A stretch of 64,000 nucleotides of DNA from Oscillatoria sp. FACHB-1406 (GTDB lineage Bacteria; Cyanobacteriota; Cyanobacteriia; Cyanobacteriales; Spirulinaceae). This document shows, in pieces, positions 12,676 through 17,529 of the stretch. The first letter of the stretch is position 1. Each line of letters opens with the position of its first letter. The stretch is taken from assembly GCF_014698145.1 (NCBI RefSeq), contig NZ_JACJSM010000001.1:24633-88632 (forward strand). The letters are read 5' to 3'. The notes below the pieces were generated by a model. It searched no databases and was not told where the DNA came from. It saw nothing but the letters and a program-made list of their open reading frames with translations. A program made the translations under genes and the position numbers.

Positions 12676-12872
12676 GGAAATAGAGAACGATTTATATCGT
12701 CCTCTGAAAGCTTTAACTAGATCTTGTTAGAGTCTCCTTGTATGGGGGAGCCAAGAGCCAGTGCTAAACTGTGGAAGTTTGGAGCGCTGGCTTTTGCTTT
12801 TATACTGCGATCGCAACATCCGCATCCATCCAGTTATGCCAATTCCCAATCCTGACCGTAGGGGCAGCATGG

Positions 12873-13059
12873 GTGTCAACTTAAGCTTAACCCCCGCTCA
12901 GAAAGTGGAATCGCCCTCACCCCCAGCCCCTCTCCCAACCCTGGGAGAGGGGAGCAAGAGAGAATTCTTCTCCCCCCTCGCCCAAAATTGGGAGAGGGGG
13001 GTCGGGGGGGGTGAGGGCTGGGATGACGCTATAACAAACACTCGTGCTTAAGTTGACAC
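12873..13059. mobile_element. MITE-like 187-bp element with perfect 14-bp terminal inverted repeats and GC-rich internal palindromes.
   Basis: TIRs GTGTCAACTTAAGC / GCTTAAGTTGACAC. Internal CCCCTCTCCCAACCCTGGGAGAGGGG and CCCCCCTCGCCCAAAATTGGGAGAGGGGGG hairpins. The core is related to the elements at 21244 and 62318. Confidence 0.7.
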
Positions 13060-13284
13060 GAATGGCCCTAATTCTGCTTCTCAGATGGTGGTGTGGCAAG
13101 GTTGTCAGAACAGTTGTAAGGGCGGAAATGAGCGATCGCAGCCCTCCCTAGTTGCCAGCCGCCAAGAGGAGAACGAGAGCAACAAATATACACATTTAGG
13201 GCTAAAAATCAATAACACTACACTACAATAGACTGAATGTGATTTCACTGCCAAACACTCTTCAAAAATCATCAAGGAGTAACG

Positions 13285-13689
13285 ATGGAGCCTATTTCCA
13301 TGATTATTGCTGCTTTAGGCGCTGGTGCGATCGCCGCGACTAAAGATACCGCCGAAACAGCCGTTAAAGATGCCTATCAAGCGTTGAAAACTCTGATTAA
13401 GAAGAAGTTTGAAGGTGAACCAAAAGCAGAAATGGTTTTGGAAGAACATGAAACAGATCCTGAAACATATAACGCACCCCTTAAAAAGAAATTAGCTGAA
13501 GCTGGTGTTGATAAAGATGCAGCTATTCTTCAAGCGGCTCAAGAGTTATTAAATCAAGTCAAAGAACAGCCCGGTGGACAGCAGATTATTACCCAAAATA
13601 TCAGTAATGTCAAGTATGCCGCTACCTCTGGTTCTGGTAGTGAAAGTATTAGTGGCATCACCGAACAAAGTTTATCGAAAGACGAGTGA
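13285..13689 (+). CDS. Small helical Bell-like protein with a C-terminal amyloid-signalling-like motif; partner of the downstream STAND NTPase.
   Basis: Strong SD (AAGGAG 8 nt upstream). N-terminal hydrophobic helix MIIAALGAGAIAA, charged helical middle, C-terminal QQIITQNISNVKYAATSGSGSESISGITEQ. That motif recurs at the N-terminus of the next gene. Confidence 0.7.
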   Translation: MEPISMIIAALGAGAIAATKDTAETAVKDAYQALKTLIKKKFEGEPKAEMVLEEHETDPETYNAPLKKKLAEAGVDKDAAILQAAQELLNQVKEQPGGQQIITQNISNVKYAATSGSGSESISGITEQSLSKDE

Positions 13690-13802
13690 AACGAACTAGC
13701 GTTTTTCAAATGGATGAGGTACAAAAATTGCAATTAGATTGGTAGGGGCGAATGGCCTTCGCCCGCGCAATGTACCTCATTTAATGAATCACAGGGTATG
13801 TT

Positions 13803-16800
13803 ATGTCCGAGCAAGGCGATATCCAACAAAGTATTACAGGAAGTGAATACGCGGCGACCTCCGCGACGGGCAATGCCACGATCTCGATTACCAATTACTA
13901 CTATCGAGAAGAAGCAAGATTAGTCCCGTCTGATTCTACCGAAGCTGCTGATGACAATCTCCCCTGTCCTTATCGGGGGTTGTTTCATTTTGGCCCCAAT
14001 GATGCGGATGTATTTTTTGGGCGGGAAATCTTTACCGAAGAACTTTATCGTGCAACTCAAACCCGTAATTTTATTCCGGTGTTAGGTGCATCAGGAAGCG
14101 GTAAATCTTCGGTCGTCTTAGCGGGATTAGTCCCTAAATTGCAAAAAGAAAGGTATTGGAAATTTACTCACTTTCGTCCGGGTGCTGTACCGTTTTATGC
14201 TTTGGCTGAGGCCCTCGTTCCGCTTTATACACCCGAATTAGATGAGACCGAGCAAATTGCCCAAACCCGAAAACTAGCGGATTACTTGCTCGATAGCACT
14301 GTTTCTCTAGCTGATGTTTTAAAAAAAATTAAACAAAATCACCTCAATCATCGGGTGCTACTGATTGCCGACCAATTTGAAGAAATTTACACGCTCTGTA
14401 ATAACCTGGAAATTCGCCGTCAGTTTCTCGACTGCTTATTAGCCGGTTTAGAAACTCCGACTTCTTTGTCTGCATCAGCGACGGTGTTGGTAACAACGAT
14501 GCGAGCAGATTTTTTGGGAAATGCGCTCTCCTATCGTCCCTTTGCTGATGTCTTGCAAAAGGCTGATGTGAAACTGGGGCCGATGAATCGGGGGGAACTC
14601 ACAGAAGTTATTGAAAAACCTGCCCAAAAATTAGGGGTGACGTTTGAGTCGGGATTGGTAGAACGGATTCTCGATGATGTGGAAAACCAACCGGGAAATT
14701 TACCGTTGCTCGAGTTTGCTTTAACTGAGTTGTGGAACAAGCGCACGGGTAAACAATTAACTCACCAAATCTATGAAGCAATTGGTCAAGTAGAAGGTGC
14801 ATTAGCTCGCCATGCGGATGAAAAATATGGCAACTTGACTGATGAAGAAAAAGAAAAAGTTCGGCGAATTTTTATTCAATTGGTGCGTCCGGGGGAGGGG
14901 GCAGAAGATACCAGACGCATCGCCATGAAAGCGGAATTGGGAGAGCAAAGCTGGAGTTTGGTCAAACAATTAGCTGATGCTCGGTTGGTGGTGACAAGTC
15001 GCAATGCTACCAGTCAAGAAACGGTGGAGGTCGTCCATGAAGCGCTGATTCGCAATTGGGGAGAACTGCGAGCATGGATGAATACAAACCGCGATTTTAG
15101 GGCTTGGCAAGAGCGACTGCGGGCAGCAAAAGGGCAATGGGAAGCAACGAATCGAGATTCCGGTTCATTGTTGCGGGGTGCAGCACTAGCGGAAGCAGAA
15201 GAAAAACTGAAAGAACGCCCAGAAGACTTACTCGACGAGCAAGAATTTATCGAGCAGAGTATCCAAGAAGGAAATCGCCTCAAACAAATCGAAGCAGCCC
15301 GCAGGAAGCGCGACATTAGAACAGCTTGGGGGGTGGCGGTGGGTTCGTTGGTGGCGGTGGTGATTAGTGCGGGATTGGGTTTGACGGCATGGAATCAGAA
15401 AAACCAATCGGAACTCAATCAAGCCGAATCTCTGGGTCGATATTCCTTATCTCTATGGAATGAAAATAAACAATTAGAGACTTTTGTCCCAGCAATCAAG
15501 GCGGGAAAAATCCTGCAAAGCCAACACAAAACGAACCCAGAGATCATGAAGGCTTTAGAGGCAGTTCTTGTTCAAGGAAGAGAACGCAACCGCTTAGAAG
15601 GGCATAGTGATGTTGTCATTAGCATCAGTTTCAGCCCCGACGGCAAGACTTTGGCTTCTGGCAGTTCTGACAACACCATCAAACTGTGGAATATCGAGAC
15701 CGGAAAAGAAATCCGCGCCCTCAACGGACATAGTGAATCTGTCATTAGCATCAGTTTCAGCCCCGACGGCAAGACTTTGGCTTCTGGCAGTCGGGATAAG
15801 ACCATCAAACTGTGGAATATAGAGACCGGAACTGTAATCCGCACTCTCAACGGGCATAATAGCCCTGTCATTAGCGTCAGTTTTAGCCCCGATGGCAAGA
15901 CTTTGGCTTCTAGCAGTGATGACCAGACCATCAAACTGTGGAATATAGAGACCGGAACTGTAATCCGCACTCTCAACGGGCATAATAGCCCTGTCAGTAG
16001 CATCAGTTTCAGCCTCGACGGCAAGACCTTGGCTTCTGGCAGTTCTGACAACACCATCAAACTGTGGAATATCGAGACCGGAAAAGAAATCCGCGCCCTC
16101 AACGGACATAGTGAATCTGTCATTAGCATCAGTTTCAGCCCCGACGGCAAGACTTTGGCTTCTGGCAGTGATGACAAGACCATCAAACTGTGGAATATCG
16201 AGACCGGAACTGTAATCCGCACTCTCAACGGGCATAGTGGCACTGTCAGTAGCGTCAGTTTTAGCCCCGACGGCAAGACCTTGGCTTCTGGCAATACAGA
16301 CAAGACCATCAAACTGTGGAATATCGAGACCGGAAAAGAAATCCGCACTCTCATTGGGCATAGTGGCACTGTCAGTAGCGTCAGTTTTAGCCCCGACGGC
16401 AAGACCTTGGCTTCTAGCAGTGATGACAAGACCATCAAACTGTGGAATATCGAGACCGGAACTGTAATCCGAACCCTCAACGGGCATAGTGAGTCTGTCT
16501 ATAGCGTCAGTTTTAGCCCCGACGGCAAGACCTTGGCTTCTGGCAGTGATGACAACACCATCAAACTGTGGAATATCGAGACCGGAACTGTAATCCGCAC
16601 CCTCAACGGGCATAGTGAGTCTGTCTATAGCGTCAGTTTCAGCCCCGATGGCAAGACCTTGGCTTCTGGCAGTTATGACCAGACCATCAAACTCTGGAAT
16701 ATAGAGACGGGAAAAGAAATCCGCACTCTCAACGGGCATAGTGAGTCTGTCAGTAGCGTCAGTTTTAGCCCCGACGGCAAGACTTTGGCTTCTGGCAGTT

Positions 16801-16961
16801 ATGACCAGACCATCAAACTCTGGAATCTTCCAGAATTGGAGCTAGACCCCTTAATGAAGCGTAATTGCGATTTGGTACGCGCTTATTTAACCCATAATCC
16901 TAATGTCAGCGAGAGCGACAGGCACTTGTGCGACGGTATCGGCACGCAAAAAAGCCTGTAA
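13803..16961 (+). CDS. STAND (NACHT-like) P-loop NTPase with an N-terminal BASS-like motif, a single TM helix and 10 WD40 repeats (NLR-like).
   Basis: N-terminal QQSITGSEYAATSATGNATISITNYY; CPYRGLFHFGPNDADVFFGRE; Walker A GASGSGKSS, Walker B LLIADQFEE; TM WGVAVGSLVAVVISAGLGLTAW; ten near-identical 42-aa WD40 units (GHS..V.SVSFSPDGKTLASGS.D.TIKLWN). Confidence 0.9.
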   Translation: MSEQGDIQQSITGSEYAATSATGNATISITNYYYREEARLVPSDSTEAADDNLPCPYRGLFHFGPNDADVFFGREIFTEELYRATQTRNFIPVLGASGSGKSSVVLAGLVPKLQKERYWKFTHFRPGAVPFYALAEALVPLYTPELDETEQIAQTRKLADYLLDSTVSLADVLKKIKQNHLNHRVLLIADQFEEIYTLCNNLEIRRQFLDCLLAGLETPTSLSASATVLVTTMRADFLGNALSYRPFADVLQKADVKLGPMNRGELTEVIEKPAQKLGVTFESGLVERILDDVENQPGNLPLLEFALTELWNKRTGKQLTHQIYEAIGQVEGALARHADEKYGNLTDEEKEKVRRIFIQLVRPGEGAEDTRRIAMKAELGEQSWSLVKQLADARLVVTSRNATSQETVEVVHEALIRNWGELRAWMNTNRDFRAWQERLRAAKGQWEATNRDSGSLLRGAALAEAEEKLKERPEDLLDEQEFIEQSIQEGNRLKQIEAARRKRDIRTAWGVAVGSLVAVVISAGLGLTAWNQKNQSELNQAESLGRYSLSLWNENKQLETFVPAIKAGKILQSQHKTNPEIMKALEAVLVQGRERNRLEGHSDVVISISFSPDGKTLASGSSDNTIKLWNIETGKEIRALNGHSESVISISFSPDGKTLASGSRDKTIKLWNIETGTVIRTLNGHNSPVISVSFSPDGKTLASSSDDQTIKLWNIETGTVIRTLNGHNSPVSSISFSLDGKTLASGSSDNTIKLWNIETGKEIRALNGHSESVISISFSPDGKTLASGSDDKTIKLWNIETGTVIRTLNGHSGTVSSVSFSPDGKTLASGNTDKTIKLWNIETGKEIRTLIGHSGTVSSVSFSPDGKTLASSSDDKTIKLWNIETGTVIRTLNGHSESVYSVSFSPDGKTLASGSDDNTIKLWNIETGTVIRTLNGHSESVYSVSFSPDGKTLASGSYDQTIKLWNIETGKEIRTLNGHSESVSSVSFSPDGKTLASGSYDQTIKLWNLPELELDPLMKRNCDLVRAYLTHNPNVSESDRHLCDGIGTQKSL
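15594..16850 (+). repeat. Ten near-identical 126-bp tandem repeats encoding the WD40 blades.
   Basis: Nucleotide-level repetition (...cagttttagccccgacggcaagac(t/c)ttggcttctggcagt...). Generates spurious long antisense ORFs. Confidence 0.9.
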
Positions 16962-17280
16962 ACTCCCTCAAACAGTAAAGTCCACATTTATTAGTTTTGA
17001 AAAAAATCTCTTTAATCCGGTATGAATATAGATTCACCTTGACGACATTGATAGCAATAGACACATCAATGAGGACAATTCGATGGGTGGAAAACCGGGC
17101 GAATGCCATTCGCCCCTACCCAATTTTGTCCTAACTGCCTTGACGATGGCGATAATTAATGACTCCCTGCGACTTCAACAATACTGAGTGGGTCGCAGCC
17201 GCATCTAACATTCCGTTACAGCGAACAGCAATCTATCAACCATGACAAACCATGCCTATAAGTTACTGTACGCTAGATAA

Positions 17281-17352
17281 AAGGCGACACCCGGATTTGA
17301 ACCGGGGAATAGAGGTTTTGCAGACCTCTGCCTTACCGCTTGGCTATGTCGC
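17281..17352 (-). tRNA. tRNA-Cys (anticodon GCA).
   Basis: Reverse complement folds as a cloverleaf: acceptor GGCGACA/TGTCGCC, D-arm with GG, anticodon stem GAGGT/ACCTC with loop CUGCAAA, T-loop GGTTCAAATCC. CCA not encoded. Confidence 0.85.
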
Positions 17353-17529
17353 CAGACATATAGCTCTGAATTATAACATATAATCTGCCTCTCGATCCAG
17401 CAGTCCGGACGCAGAATTTTGTAACTAATTGTTATGGTGGGTAACAAAGGCTTAACGGCGGTCTGCTGCTGCGATAATCTAGATCGGGTAATTCACAGAC
17501 CGATTTTATTGTTCGAGAGAGCTTGTTCC

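Follow-up and report, generated by a model that had tools for sequence, protein, structure and literature searches.

A Bell-like protein and an adjacent nSTAND1-WD40 receptor with a common terminal motif in Oscillatoria sp. FACHB-1406: a putative cell-death cassette

The locus

Within the 64,000-nucleotide stretch of the Oscillatoria sp. FACHB-1406 genome analysed here (the window), two genes encoding proteins of 134 and 1052 aa adjoin each other (Table 1), both where an earlier note on this DNA, made from the letters alone, had placed them, and an AAGGAG Shine-Dalgarno sequence is found 7 nt 5' of the start of the shorter one. The expectation that the pair would be unannotated did not hold, as both genes are already in NCBI and only a functional annotation is missing. 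Around the locus no recognisable defence island was found, and neither protein is covered by a PADLOC system model. As judged from their translations, the flanking genes resemble housekeeping genes (a GTPase and a porphobilinogen-deaminase-like ORF).

Table 1. Features of the two-gene locus (nucleotide positions in the window)
Feature	Position	Strand	Basis
Gene, 134-aa Bell-like putative executioner	13285..13689	+	ORF; NCBI MBD2576109.1 'hypothetical protein' (exact match)
Bell-like helical domain (aa 1-95), with hydrophobic 'MEPIS' helix (aa 1-19: MEPISMIIAALGAGAIAAT)	13285..13569	+	AF2 model
Effector-side motif copy (aa 99-128: QQIITQNISNVKYAATSGSGSESISGITEQ)	13579..13668	+	alignment to receptor N-terminus, score 53
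Intergenic imperfect hairpin, outer stem ATGAGGTACA/TGTACCTCAT	13711..13783	+	spacer folding
Inner hairpin GGGCGAA-TGGCC-TTCGCCC	13746..13764	+	sequence
Gene, 1052-aa receptor	13803..16961	+	ORF; NCBI MBD2576110.1 'WD40 repeat domain-containing protein'
Receptor-side motif copy (aa 6-31: DIQQSITGSEYAATSATGNATISITN)	13818..13895	+	alignment to small-protein C-terminus
nSTAND1 STAND NTPase module (aa 56-453)	13968..15161	+	Pfam PF20703, E 8.8e-123
Walker A GASGSGKS in nSTAND1 module	14085..14108	+	sequence
Predicted single TM helix (aa 508-530, AWGVAVGSLVAVVISAGLGLTAW), RRKRDIR just before	15324..15392	+	hydrophobicity
Ten WD40 repeats, 42 aa / 126 nt each, predicted sensor	15594..16853	+	direct repeats; Pfam 10 WD40
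C-terminal tail, Cys pair C1022...C1043 (...NCDLVRAYLTHNPNVSESDRHLCDGIG...)	16854..16958	+	conserved in partners
Second, inverted copy of 25-nt hairpin core, 3' of receptor gene	17096..17120	-	inverted repeat I1

The inner hairpin between the two genes, which the earlier note had pointed out, is present as described. The 119-nt intergenic spacer has a folding energy of -35.5 kcal/mol (z -3.46), while the hairpin lacks a terminator-like U-run and found no match in Rfam. Of ten motif-class relatives whose spacers were measured, eight have one of 31 nt, and these eight spacers match only the last ~25 nt of that in the window; by sequence comparison, the hairpin is a lineage-specific insertion lying outside the conserved cassette. 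Its core is probably a dispersed palindromic element, and the inverted repeat I1 pairs positions 13741-13765 with 17096-17120 at 96% complementarity, where 0 matches are expected by chance.

The small protein

For the 134-aa protein, AF2 confidently predicts a five-helix bundle (helices at aa 3-19, 25-41, 46-57, 59-73 and 79-94; pLDDT about 81-95) followed by a disordered tail with pLDDT <50 from aa 109. The N-terminus, with an acidic residue 2 and a hydrophobic helix 1, is of the type termed MEPIS, a signature named for the Bab, Bell and Hell executioner domains. Published Bell and Babybell domains have, in addition to MEPIS, a helix 1 that is cupped by four helices, and both the predicted bundle and the MEPIS start agree with this description, which supports the designation as Bell-like. 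Residues M1, A10, L11 and G14 are invariant among the relatives. All 396 homologs carry the precomputed Pfam assignment HetE-N (PF20701); the window protein itself scores 14.2 bits against this model, under the threshold of 25, whereas its relative P0143 reaches 44.8 bits, above the gathering threshold of 25. Fold searches with the model recovered generic helical bundles only, and not HeLo, MLKL or Bab.

A short motif common to both proteins

The small protein at its C-terminus and the large protein at its N-terminus have in common a motif of ~25 aa (I-x-Q-x-[IV]-[ST]-x3-Y-A-A-T-S-x2-G-x-A-[ST]-I-[ST], in the following the YAATS motif), as claimed from inspection of the sequence. The top local alignment of the two entire proteins joins aa 101-123 with aa 6-28 at a BLOSUM62 score of 53. 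When both 45-aa termini were shuffled 20,000 times with their composition kept, a mean score of 22.6 (sd 4.5) was obtained and 53 was reached once, an outcome that was unchanged with the 30-aa low-complexity cores alone. Therefore, the similarity lies above background in the shuffled-sequence control that the earlier note had proposed, and is not an artefact of G/S/T composition.

With about 25 aa, a richness in I, T, S, A, N, G and Q, a lack of L and very few P, K or charged residues, the motif agrees in length and in L/P/K depletion with the bias of published BASS motifs, its S/T/A content being above what is typical of these. Both copies are predicted by AF2 to be disordered in the monomer, the pLDDT of receptor aa 1-50 being about 26-30. 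Comparison with representative BASS1-10 sequences revealed no significant similarity, the nearest representative being BASS4 with a score of 39 (p about 0.017, uncorrected for the ten families), and an amyloid nature can therefore not be borrowed from a tested family. Likewise, the motif string is absent from the BASS pair table of Dyrka et al. 2020 (bioRxiv 10.1101/2020.01.06.895854), which contains none (0/6) of six nSTAND1-paired motif or linker strings. As far as these strings tell, the pair belongs to a branch that the catalogue published in 2020 does not include. When 1.84 billion representatives were searched exhaustively with a motif profile, 52 hits were obtained, nearly all of which are located at the C-terminus of ~120-160-aa proteins, within residues 1-38 of 700-1300-aa proteins, or in short fragments thereof, and the few others in chimeric or repeat proteins.

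Pairing across other genomes

Of 80 related genome loci, 61 have a small protein whose C-terminal end is matched by the N-terminus of the collinear ORF directly downstream. Together with the window these loci form a set of 62 pairs, in all of which (62/62) the motif class of the small protein agrees with that of the adjacent receptor. Alignment scores average 62.6 for cognate pairs in contrast to 19.8 for pairs of differing motif class, and the top-scoring receptor N-terminus is of the small protein's own class in 62/62 cases. The YAATS motif is found on both genes at 15 loci, i.e., in the window and in 14 species-level genomes (the hosts including Nostoc, Microcystis, Phormidium, Cronbergia, Dolichospermum, Anabaena and Nodularia), which bears out the co-occurrence elsewhere by which the earlier note had proposed to judge the pair. 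Inside the YAATS class fine-scale co-variation is weak, the observed value being reached in 812 of 20,000 permutations.

While the helical domain is kept, its relatives carry several alternative C-terminal motifs, a BASS3/RHIM-like one in sister loci and others elsewhere. At locus L082 the YAATS motif resides on a protein with an EAD1-like domain, directly 5' of a YAATS-nSTAND1 gene; at L081 a Bell relative bears two different motifs in tandem, the second of which is matched by the neighbour; and L080 encodes a single Bell-nSTAND1-WD40 protein, fused by recombination within the motif. Motifs, effectors and sensors are thus exchanged modularly among loci.

The receptor

The large protein consists of the motif, the nSTAND1 NTPase, a TM helix, ten WD40 repeats and a tail with a Cys pair, and Pfam (nSTAND1, 10 WD40) and the hydrophobic segment at aa 508-530 support the layout read from the sequence beforehand. 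The nSTAND1 core, in which the Walker A motif GASGSGKSS occupies aa 95-103, is confident in the AF2 model, and the Foldseek neighbours of this model comprise Cdc6/ORC, tomato NRC3/NRC2 and Apaf-1. Of the label 'NLR-type' STAND NTPase the STAND part holds, but the protein is not a classical NACHT/NB-ARC NLR, its clade being nSTAND1 according to Pfam; the PADLOC models did not recognise this NTPase.

The predicted TM segment has a Kyte-Doolittle 19-residue mean of 2.14 as compared to 1.20 for the runner-up, and a low AF2 confidence. At the equivalent position 48 distinct hydrophobic segments were found among the relatives; a combination of TM helix and sensor is hence the rule in this receptor family and not, as had been assumed, unusual. 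K and R residues are more numerous before than after the segment in 44 of these 48 (mean 5.15 before, 2.04 after; p = 4e-9), and in P0267, a relative of the YAATS class, an SLH cell-wall-binding domain follows the TM helix. This strong positive-inside charge bias and the one SLH-bearing relative suggest a C-out topology, with the WD40 sensor outside the cytoplasm.

The WD40 repeats form a direct repeat family of 10 copies in exact units of 42 aa or 126 nt, and the eight copies between the two outermost copies and the reference are 84-94% identical to the reference at the nucleotide level. Except for the divergent end of the last repeat, variation is limited to positions 2, 5-7, 9, 11, 15, 23-25, 27, 38-39 and 42. 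A C-x(15-30)-C tail occurs in 27 of 39 complete partner proteins.

Interpretation and alternatives

Taken together, the two genes probably make up a regulated cell-death cassette of the Bell/BASS-NLR type that works by amyloid templating. The proposal that a Bell-like executioner and a STAND receptor are coupled via a shared motif is in line with the shuffles, the 14 genomes, the class agreement in 62/62 pairs, the MEPIS N-terminus and the BASS-like composition. A precedent comes from E. coli, where abortive infection by Bab/Agp is carried out by a Bell-like protein that is activated via an amyloid motif common to both partners (bioRxiv 10.1101/2024.11.07.622273). By analogy with HET-S/NWD2 and Bab/Agp, the motif would form amyloid and act by templating, and the small protein would form pores and kill the cell; a role of the putative cassette in defence or allorecognition is conceivable.

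According to this model, one TM helix would anchor the receptor in the cytoplasmic membrane, with the motif and the ATPase in the cytoplasm and the ten hypervariable WD40 repeats on the side of the periplasm or thylakoid lumen. Binding of a cue by the repeats would let the NTPase modules oligomerise and gather the disordered N-terminal motifs into a cross-beta fold, which in turn would template the corresponding motif at the small protein's C-terminus. Conversion of this tail would destabilise the five-helix bundle and free the MEPIS helix, which would insert into the membrane and kill the cell. The motif might thereby act as an address label that separates the sensor-executioner pair from parallel pairs with other motifs.

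It is rather unlikely that the two proteins are instead coupled by a non-amyloid homotypic contact, i.e., beta-strand augmentation or a small oligomeric beta-sheet, which would leave a sensor-effector cassette, though one without a templated, self-propagating fold. In similar organisms, neighbouring genes do have a short adaptor in common (EAD coupling; Kaur et al. 2020, PMC7159879), one motif carrier has an EAD1-like domain, and no experimentally tested BASS family shows significant similarity to the motif. However, nearly all of the described EADs consist of alpha-helices only and one is of mixed alpha+beta type (PMC7159879), and the Pfam EAD1 model covers 90 positions as opposed to a predicted-disordered motif of ~25 aa. 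In the L082 protein the motif is a part distinct from the EAD1-like domain and is therefore no EAD itself. In addition, the motif has BASS-like length and L/P/K depletion, and the tested motifs of comparable genomic type all formed amyloid.

Since the receptor itself appears to be membrane-anchored, the small protein, by its hydrophobic helix, could co-localise with it and, docking via the motif, serve as membrane-associated regulator, inhibitor or co-receptor of the NTPase, the output lying elsewhere. The toxicity of the small-protein family is itself inferred, and the fold searches provide no tie to a known pore former; we nevertheless regard such a role as decidedly improbable, because the receptor comprises only motif, NTPase, TM helix and repeats and thus has no effector domain. 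Mutation of the MEPIS helix abolishes killing by Bab, and this helix is conserved in HeLo-like executioners; moreover, in the L080 fusion the Bell-like domain takes up the effector position at the receptor's N-terminus, and L082 exchanges the domain for an EAD1-like one while keeping motif and receptor, as expected of an output module.

There is very little to recommend activation by proteolysis instead of templating, with the small protein as an EACC1-like pore-former. EACC1 is likewise small and membrane-active with a glycine-rich hydrophobic helix, and in multicellular bacteria its gene precedes that of a large sensor, sometimes with nSTAND1. Yet what defines EACC1 systems is that the partner bears a caspase-like protease, and a protease domain is absent from the window receptor and from nine motif-class relatives scanned full-length; the EACC1 helix is central with alpha+beta flanks, whereas that of the window protein is N-terminal in an all-alpha bundle, and proteolysis leaves the motif common to both proteins unexplained.

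Finally, a chance match between two G/S/T-rich, low-complexity termini of functionally unrelated genes, although both termini are compositionally biased, is refuted by the shuffles (only 1/20,000 composition-preserving ones at score 53), by recurrence of the pairing in 14 other genomes and by covariation of the motif classes in 62/62 pairs.

Comparison with known systems

With the Bell/BASS and NLR pairs of filamentous bacteria (Dyrka et al. 2020, bioRxiv 10.1101/2020.01.06.895854) the pair shares a filamentous cyanobacterial host, a ~130-aa helical protein with hydrophobic N-terminal helix and acidic residue 2, and a ~25-aa Q/N/G/I-rich C-terminal motif that is repeated at the N-terminus of an adjacent collinear STAND-WD receptor; sister loci of the window family even carry the BASS3 (RHIM-like) motif. 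In contrast, the NTPase of the window is nSTAND1 while the published pairs are defined by NACHT/NB-ARC, its motif lies outside the pair table and is dissimilar to the BASS1-10 representatives, and the receptor has a conserved TM helix, the word 'transmembrane' being absent from the main text of the preprint.

Bab/Agp of E. coli (Ibarlosa et al. 2024, bioRxiv 10.1101/2024.11.07.622273) resembles the pair in its small Bell-related executioner with MEPIS N-terminal helix, in a C-terminal amyloid motif that recurs N-terminally in the adjacent large sensor, and in the proposed templating followed by release of helix 1. However, its motif is BASS11, Babybell has ~80 aa and a different helix topology, and Bab/Agp resides in a prophage defence hotspot, the window pair among housekeeping-looking genes. 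Its function has been demonstrated, whereas the window pair is known from sequence and predicted structure.

In Podospora anserina, the gene of the NACHT-WD receptor NWD2, which has an N-terminal amyloid motif, adjoins that of the HeLo pore-former HET-S. As in the window, the receptor's N-terminal motif matches the C-terminal motif of the partner (the prion-forming domain in HET-S), and the WD repeats are highly conserved internally and hypervariable. This system is eukaryotic and has no detectable sequence homology to the window pair; HET-S has two motif pseudo-repeats as opposed to one motif in the small protein, and NWD2 is soluble and cytoplasmic without a TM helix, whereas the window receptor is predicted to span the membrane.

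EACC1-caspase systems (Kaur et al. 2020, PMC7159879; Evans et al. 2025, bioRxiv 10.1101/2025.11.14.688446) also have a small membrane-active effector 5' of a large modular sensor, are enriched in multicellular bacteria and may include nSTAND1, as does the window receptor, but EACC1 is activated by caspase-like cleavage, shares no terminal motif with its partner and has a different effector fold. The antiviral STAND NTPases Avs and bNACHT, in turn, are soluble single-protein systems without amyloid relay, and the nSTAND1 of the window receptor forms a clade separate from their NTPases. They follow, however, the same logic of STAND NTPase and repeat sensor, and in some of them a MEPIS-type N-terminal domain is fused directly, as may be compared with L080.

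Gene pair and small protein

The two genes lie collinear on the same strand with 113 nt between them, and both proteins exactly match NCBI records of Oscillatoria sp. FACHB-1406. An earlier note, made from the sequence alone, had taken the genes to be likely unannotated; NCBI already calls both, as 'hypothetical protein' and 'WD40 repeat domain-containing protein', respectively, and only their function is unannotated.

Coordinates of the gene pair, of the receptor domains and of neighbouring elements (nucleotide positions in the window; aa, residues of the receptor)
Feature	Position	Strand	Remarks
Small gene	13285-13689	+	ORF, 134 aa
Receptor gene	13803-16961	+	ORF, 1052 aa
nSTAND1 NTPase	aa 56-453		Walker A GASGSGKS; Pfam PF20703, E 9e-123
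Predicted TM helix	aa 508-530		strongly hydrophobic segment, one in receptor
WD40 repeats			ten, exactly 42 aa each; Pfam and repeat analysis
C-terminal tail	16854-16958	+	two cysteines
25-nt element, first copy	13741-13765
25-nt element, second copy	17096-17120
Nested palindrome	12868-13064		~200 nt, upstream of small gene
Nested palindrome, outer arms	12868-12886 / 13046-13064
Nested palindrome, inner arms	12927-12952 / 12974-12999		CCCCTCTCCCAACCCTGGGAGAGGGG
tRNA-Cys(GCA)	17282-17353	-	~320 nt downstream of receptor gene

Modelled by AF2 with 101 homologs, the small protein is a bundle of five helices (residues 3-19, 25-41, 46-57, 59-73 and 79-94; pLDDT about 81-95), followed by 26 final residues with a pLDDT <50. 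Bell domains have been described as comprising about 100 aa and five helices, of which the first is hydrophobic, with residue 2 or 3 being acidic, and the proteins carrying them as short (about 120-140 aa), the family being defined by jackhmmer from ONI86675.1 (Dyrka et al. 2020, 10.1101/2020.01.06.895854). According to model and sequence, the small protein has this length, a helical domain, a hydrophobic helix 1 and an acidic residue at position 2/3. In addition, its N-terminus, MEPISMIIAALGAGAIAAT, is a literal match to the 'MEPIS' motif, the name given to the N-terminus that is conserved among Bab, Bell, Hell and a number of antiphage NLRs and mutation of which abolishes killing (Ibarlosa et al. 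2024, 10.1101/2024.11.07.622273). Evidence of direct homology to Bell is weaker: taking the Pfam family HetE-N as a proxy, the small protein reaches 14.2 bits, which is below the gathering score of 25, and its motif-sharing relative P0143 44.8 bits, and HetE-N is a precomputed match in 120 of 120 small-protein homologs among the matches listed. Fold searches with the small-protein model returned generic helical bundles only, a profile made from the family alignment matched no solved structure below E = 0.5 and the NCBIfam search gave nothing informative; amongst the PADLOC models none fits the small protein, and the receptor was matched solely via its WD repeats.

A motif shared by the two proteins

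When both complete proteins are aligned locally, the best alignment (score 53) is that between aa 101-123 at the C-terminal end of the small protein (ITQNISNVKYAATSGSGSESIS) and aa 6-28 at the N-terminal end of the receptor (IQQSITGSEYAATSATGNATIS). Shuffled termini of the same composition score 22.6 ± 4.5, and since only one of 20,000 shuffles attains 53, this shared motif, which the earlier note had pointed out and which is here called YAATS, is real and not an artefact of low complexity. It is about 25 aa long, predicted to be disordered and of beta-prone composition, being rich in I, T, S, A, N, G and Q, devoid of L and almost devoid of P and K; in composition and length, it fits the features of the BASS motifs. 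An exhaustive search of 1.84 billion representative proteins with the motif profile yielded 52 matches, nearly all of which lie at the C-terminus of proteins of about 120-160 aa, within residues 1-38 of proteins of 700-1300 aa, or in short fragments of either, with a few chimeric or repeat matches carrying the motif elsewhere; a search with a padded motif query returned fragments of 35-82 aa only.

With respect to the relatives of the small protein, 24 aligned homologs with 60-85% overall identity to it keep the first ~95 residues, and their last 25-30 residues alternate between unrelated motifs. Of 80 loci taken from species-representative genomes, 61 show a match between the C-terminus of the small protein and the N-terminus encoded by the next downstream ORF on the same strand. 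Cognate pairs have a mean score of 62.6, in contrast to 19.8 ± 4.3 for pairs of different motif classes, and each of 62 small proteins has its best-scoring receptor N-terminus within its own motif class. It is this covariation between classes that argues most strongly for the motif as a functional link between the two proteins; within the YAATS class, fine-scale coevolution of the motif copies is weak (812/20,000 permutations reach the observed value) and does not count among the evidence used here.

The YAATS motif itself is present on both genes at 15 loci, i.e., in the window and in 14 other genomes, so that the co-occurrence on which the earlier note had staked its reading is borne out in other cyanobacteria, namely in Nostoc, Microcystis, Phormidium, Cronbergia, Dolichospermum, Anabaena and Nodularia; a homolog labelled Nostoc punctiforme (P0024) bears the same motif. 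The host order is Oscillatoriales, which are filamentous, and relatives are found in Nostoc, Anabaena, Microcystis and others; the pair thus occurs, like the Bell/BASS-NLR pairs, in filamentous or multicellular prokaryotes.

Exchange and fusion of modules

Several loci show the motif in other combinations. Directly upstream of a YAATS-nSTAND1 gene, at a distance of 31 nt, L082 (373-1402) codes for a protein in which an EAD1-like and not a Bell-like domain precedes the YAATS motif; motif and EAD1-like domain are here separate modules of one protein, which shows that effectors or adaptors addressed by the motif need not be of the Bell type. At another locus (L081:493-1252), the HetE-N/Bell protein P0143 carries two motifs in tandem, YAATS followed by QTNTASGNTVSGDLNFSPVQ, and the receptor encoded downstream matches the second of these, which suggests one executioner wired to two sensors. 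Fusions are found as well: Nostoc sp. CMAA1605 (L080:6001-9852) has a single Bell-nSTAND1-WD40 protein whose parts meet within the shared BASS3-like motif, just as recombination between the two motif copies would have it, and in Nostoc sp. CHAB 5715 (L013:5974-8589) Bell and motif are fused straight to the TM-WD40 part, the NTPase being deleted. At sister loci, the motif aligns to published BASS3 (RHIM-like) sequences with a score of 60, and one metagenome-assembled genome, Nostoc sp. isolate P2090 bin 22, combines a YAATS pair (L014) with a BASS3-like one (L025). All these arrangements fit a motif that serves as a short, portable address label, connecting a particular sensor with a particular effector.

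In Microcystis aeruginosa W13-11 (L010), the small gene is intact; the protein P0126, whose recorded contig is as long as that of L010, is a remnant of 43 aa consisting of the N-terminal motif of the receptor alone, and many motif-only fragments of 35-80 aa are found in metagenomes, suggesting frequent decay or turnover of receptors. A metagenomic fragment of 292 aa (P0163) combines a COR-B (Roc-COR) domain and a YAATS-type motif with a subsequent region that is TIR-like by eye and has no Pfam TIR match at E ≤ 0.001; the motif may sit inside other multidomain conflict proteins, too.

The receptor as a predicted membrane-spanning STAND protein

The NTPase had previously been read as an NLR-type STAND protein, of which the STAND assignment and, by Foldseek, the NLR-like fold hold, whereas by Pfam its clade is nSTAND1 and not NACHT or NB-ARC: the 25 best Pfam families of the receptor include neither of the latter, and nSTAND1 is present in 60 of 62 partners, with only two reaching the NACHT model at 1e-5. 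In the AF2 model of residues 1-600 the NTPase core is confident, in contrast to aa 1-50, which are disordered (pLDDT about 28), and the Foldseek neighbours of the model include Cdc6/ORC, tomato NRC3/NRC2 and Apaf-1 (probability 1.0). The receptor is, in the broad sense, an NLR-like STAND NTPase, a type in which helical and winged-helix modules and then a repeat sensor come after the P-loop NTPase.

The TM segment is modelled by AF2 with low confidence. In the relatives its position is conserved and its sequence is not, there being 48 distinct versions. On average, the 15 residues before the segment contain 5.15 K + R and the 15 after it 2.04, with more K + R before it in 44 of the 48 (p = 4e-9, Wilcoxon test), and by the positive-inside rule the NTPase would therefore be cytoplasmic and the C-terminal domain extracytoplasmic. 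The domains that follow the segment in motif-class relatives include WD40 repeats, pentapeptide repeats and, in P0267, SLH (40.6 bits), which agrees with this topology, as the cell-wall polymers to which SLH domains bind lie outside the cytoplasmic membrane. The WD repeats end in a C-terminal cap with two cysteines about 20 residues apart (C-D-x-V-R-x-Y-L-x-x-N-P-N-V-S-E-S-D-R-H-L-C-D-G-I-G), which is also seen in the last 50 residues of partners at related loci (e.g., L031, L059 and L076), the cysteine pair being present in 27 of 39 complete partner proteins. Such a pair would suit an oxidising compartment, in agreement with an extracytoplasmic C-terminal domain, where the cap may plug the propeller and be stabilised by a disulfide.

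Most differences among the ten WD repeats fall on a restricted number of positions. The eight between the two outermost copies and the reference have 84-94% DNA identity to the reference, and among relatives the number of repeats ranges from 10 to 14. Variation of this kind is typical of rapidly diversifying NLR sensors.

Hairpin, repeats and genomic surroundings

The intergenic hairpin mentioned in the earlier note does exist and forms the core of an insertion of about 80 nt into a spacer that is 31 nt long in eight of ten motif-class relatives measured. As a functional part of the cassette it was rejected, because it has no U-tract and is not terminator-like, matches no Rfam family and is absent from relatives; the insertion may affect the relative expression of the two genes.

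The 25-nt core of the hairpin is a self-palindromic element, GGTAGGGGCGAATGGC[C/A]TTCGCCCG, that is present in two copies in the 64 kb of the window, which are inverted with respect to each other and bracket the receptor gene exactly, the downstream copy lying just past it. It is probably a dispersed palindromic element and could represent a REP/MITE-like repeat or else label the receptor gene as a unit that can be exchanged. The nested palindrome upstream of the small gene, for which Rfam gave only chance miRNA-like matches below threshold, is probably another MITE-like element.

The receptor gene is followed by a gene for tRNA-Cys. Integration often takes place at tRNA genes, so that the cassette may be a small island acquired in this way; its GC profile is unremarkable. 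By translation, the flanking ORFs look like housekeeping genes (a ribosome-biogenesis-type GTPase and a porphobilinogen-deaminase-like protein), and the pair is not located in an evident defence island.

Proposed mechanism and alternatives

The analysis shows the two genes with their domains and shared motif, their conserved adjacency, the covariation of motif classes, the swaps of modules and the predicted disorder, and it supports the interpretation put forward at first reading. We consider it likely that a membrane-anchored nSTAND1 sensor signals to a Bell-like pore-former through a relay by amyloid templating, where the cross-beta conversion, the killing, the topology and the biological role are what we infer. 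For amyloid formation and for conversion of the effector-side copy by the receptor-side copy, the biased composition and the predicted disorder of the motif speak indirectly. The main competing explanation assigns the same motif to homotypic docking of a non-amyloid kind and appears rather improbable. An identity with EACC1 systems is rejected because the protease partner is missing: partners in EACC1-caspase systems bear a caspase-superfamily peptidase or a cNMP cyclase (Kaur et al. 2020, PMC7159879), and neither the receptor nor any of nine motif-class relatives scanned over their full length contains a peptidase domain.

Extended from the pair to its family, the amyloid-templating relay would make the nSTAND1 proteins single-pass transmembrane outside-in sensors that signal to Bell pore-formers under orthogonal motif labels, a generalisation which we offer tentatively and hold to be somewhat doubtful. 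An extracytoplasmic, rapidly diversifying domain made up of WD40 repeats, pentapeptide repeats or SLH would detect a cue in the envelope or periplasm, whereupon the cytoplasmic NTPase would oligomerise within the plane of the membrane and amyloid templating would carry the signal to the Bell-type pore-former, with mutually orthogonal motifs, the uncatalogued YAATS among them, serving as wiring labels.

The predicted transmembrane, outside-facing sensor is the most interesting feature of the pair, for the conserved membrane-spanning helix would put the variable sensor outside the cytoplasm, and we know of no characterised NLR-type receptor that senses from the extracytoplasmic side. If confirmed, the question becomes which envelope-side cue triggers cell death in multicellular cyanobacteria, candidates being phage adsorption or ejection, wall damage and neighbouring cells of the filament. 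The closest precedent found for such a sensor is the predicted periplasmic sensor of a DGR-diversified STAND protein; the word 'transmembrane' is absent from the main text of the preprint by Dyrka et al.

Relation to known systems

Amyloid signalling from an NLR-like sensor to a pore-forming executioner is established in fungi. In bacteria, Bab/Agp provides one functional proof of it (Ibarlosa et al. 2024, 10.1101/2024.11.07.622273).

The motif reported here is not part of the published catalogue as far as it was compared. The string 'YAATS' does not occur in the 346-pair Table S2 of Dyrka et al., nor do six strings taken from the motifs or linkers of loci with an nSTAND1 partner, and five genomes or strains bearing loci or homologs used here are not named in that table. 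Compared with representative sequences of BASS1-10, which are not the published profiles, the YAATS motif has no significant similarity to any (best BASS4, score 39, p about 0.017 uncorrected), and the literature search found, among the papers open to it, none that contains the motif strings or links nSTAND1 or PF20701 to amyloid signalling. As the screen by Dyrka et al. required NACHT or NB-ARC (10.1101/2020.01.06.895854), pairs with nSTAND1 were undetectable in it, and nSTAND1 receptors are the partners of every close relative of the small protein examined here, which suggests that the catalogue of bacterial amyloid signalling is incomplete in a systematic way; on the tentative outside-in reading of the family, a whole branch with several motif classes in many cyanobacterial genomes would have gone unseen by published screens.

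EAD-coupled STAND systems share a folded domain (nearly all EADs described are entirely alpha-helical, Kaur et al. 2020, PMC7159879; the Pfam EAD1 model spans 90 positions), whereas the element shared here has about 25 aa and is predicted to be disordered. The Bell/BASS-NLR pairs (Dyrka et al. 2020) resemble the present one in that a motif of about 25 aa is found on the C-terminus of the effector and on the N-terminus of an adjacent collinear receptor, and differ from it in that their receptors combine NACHT or NB-ARC with TPR or WD repeats, in contrast to nSTAND1 with WD repeats. Being a STAND protein with an NLR-like fold, the receptor therefore fails the operational definition of these pairs and not their architecture. 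The kind of system is thus already known from the Bell/BASS-NLR pairs and Bab/Agp, from which the present pair differs in its motif, in the clade of the partner and in the transmembrane helix.
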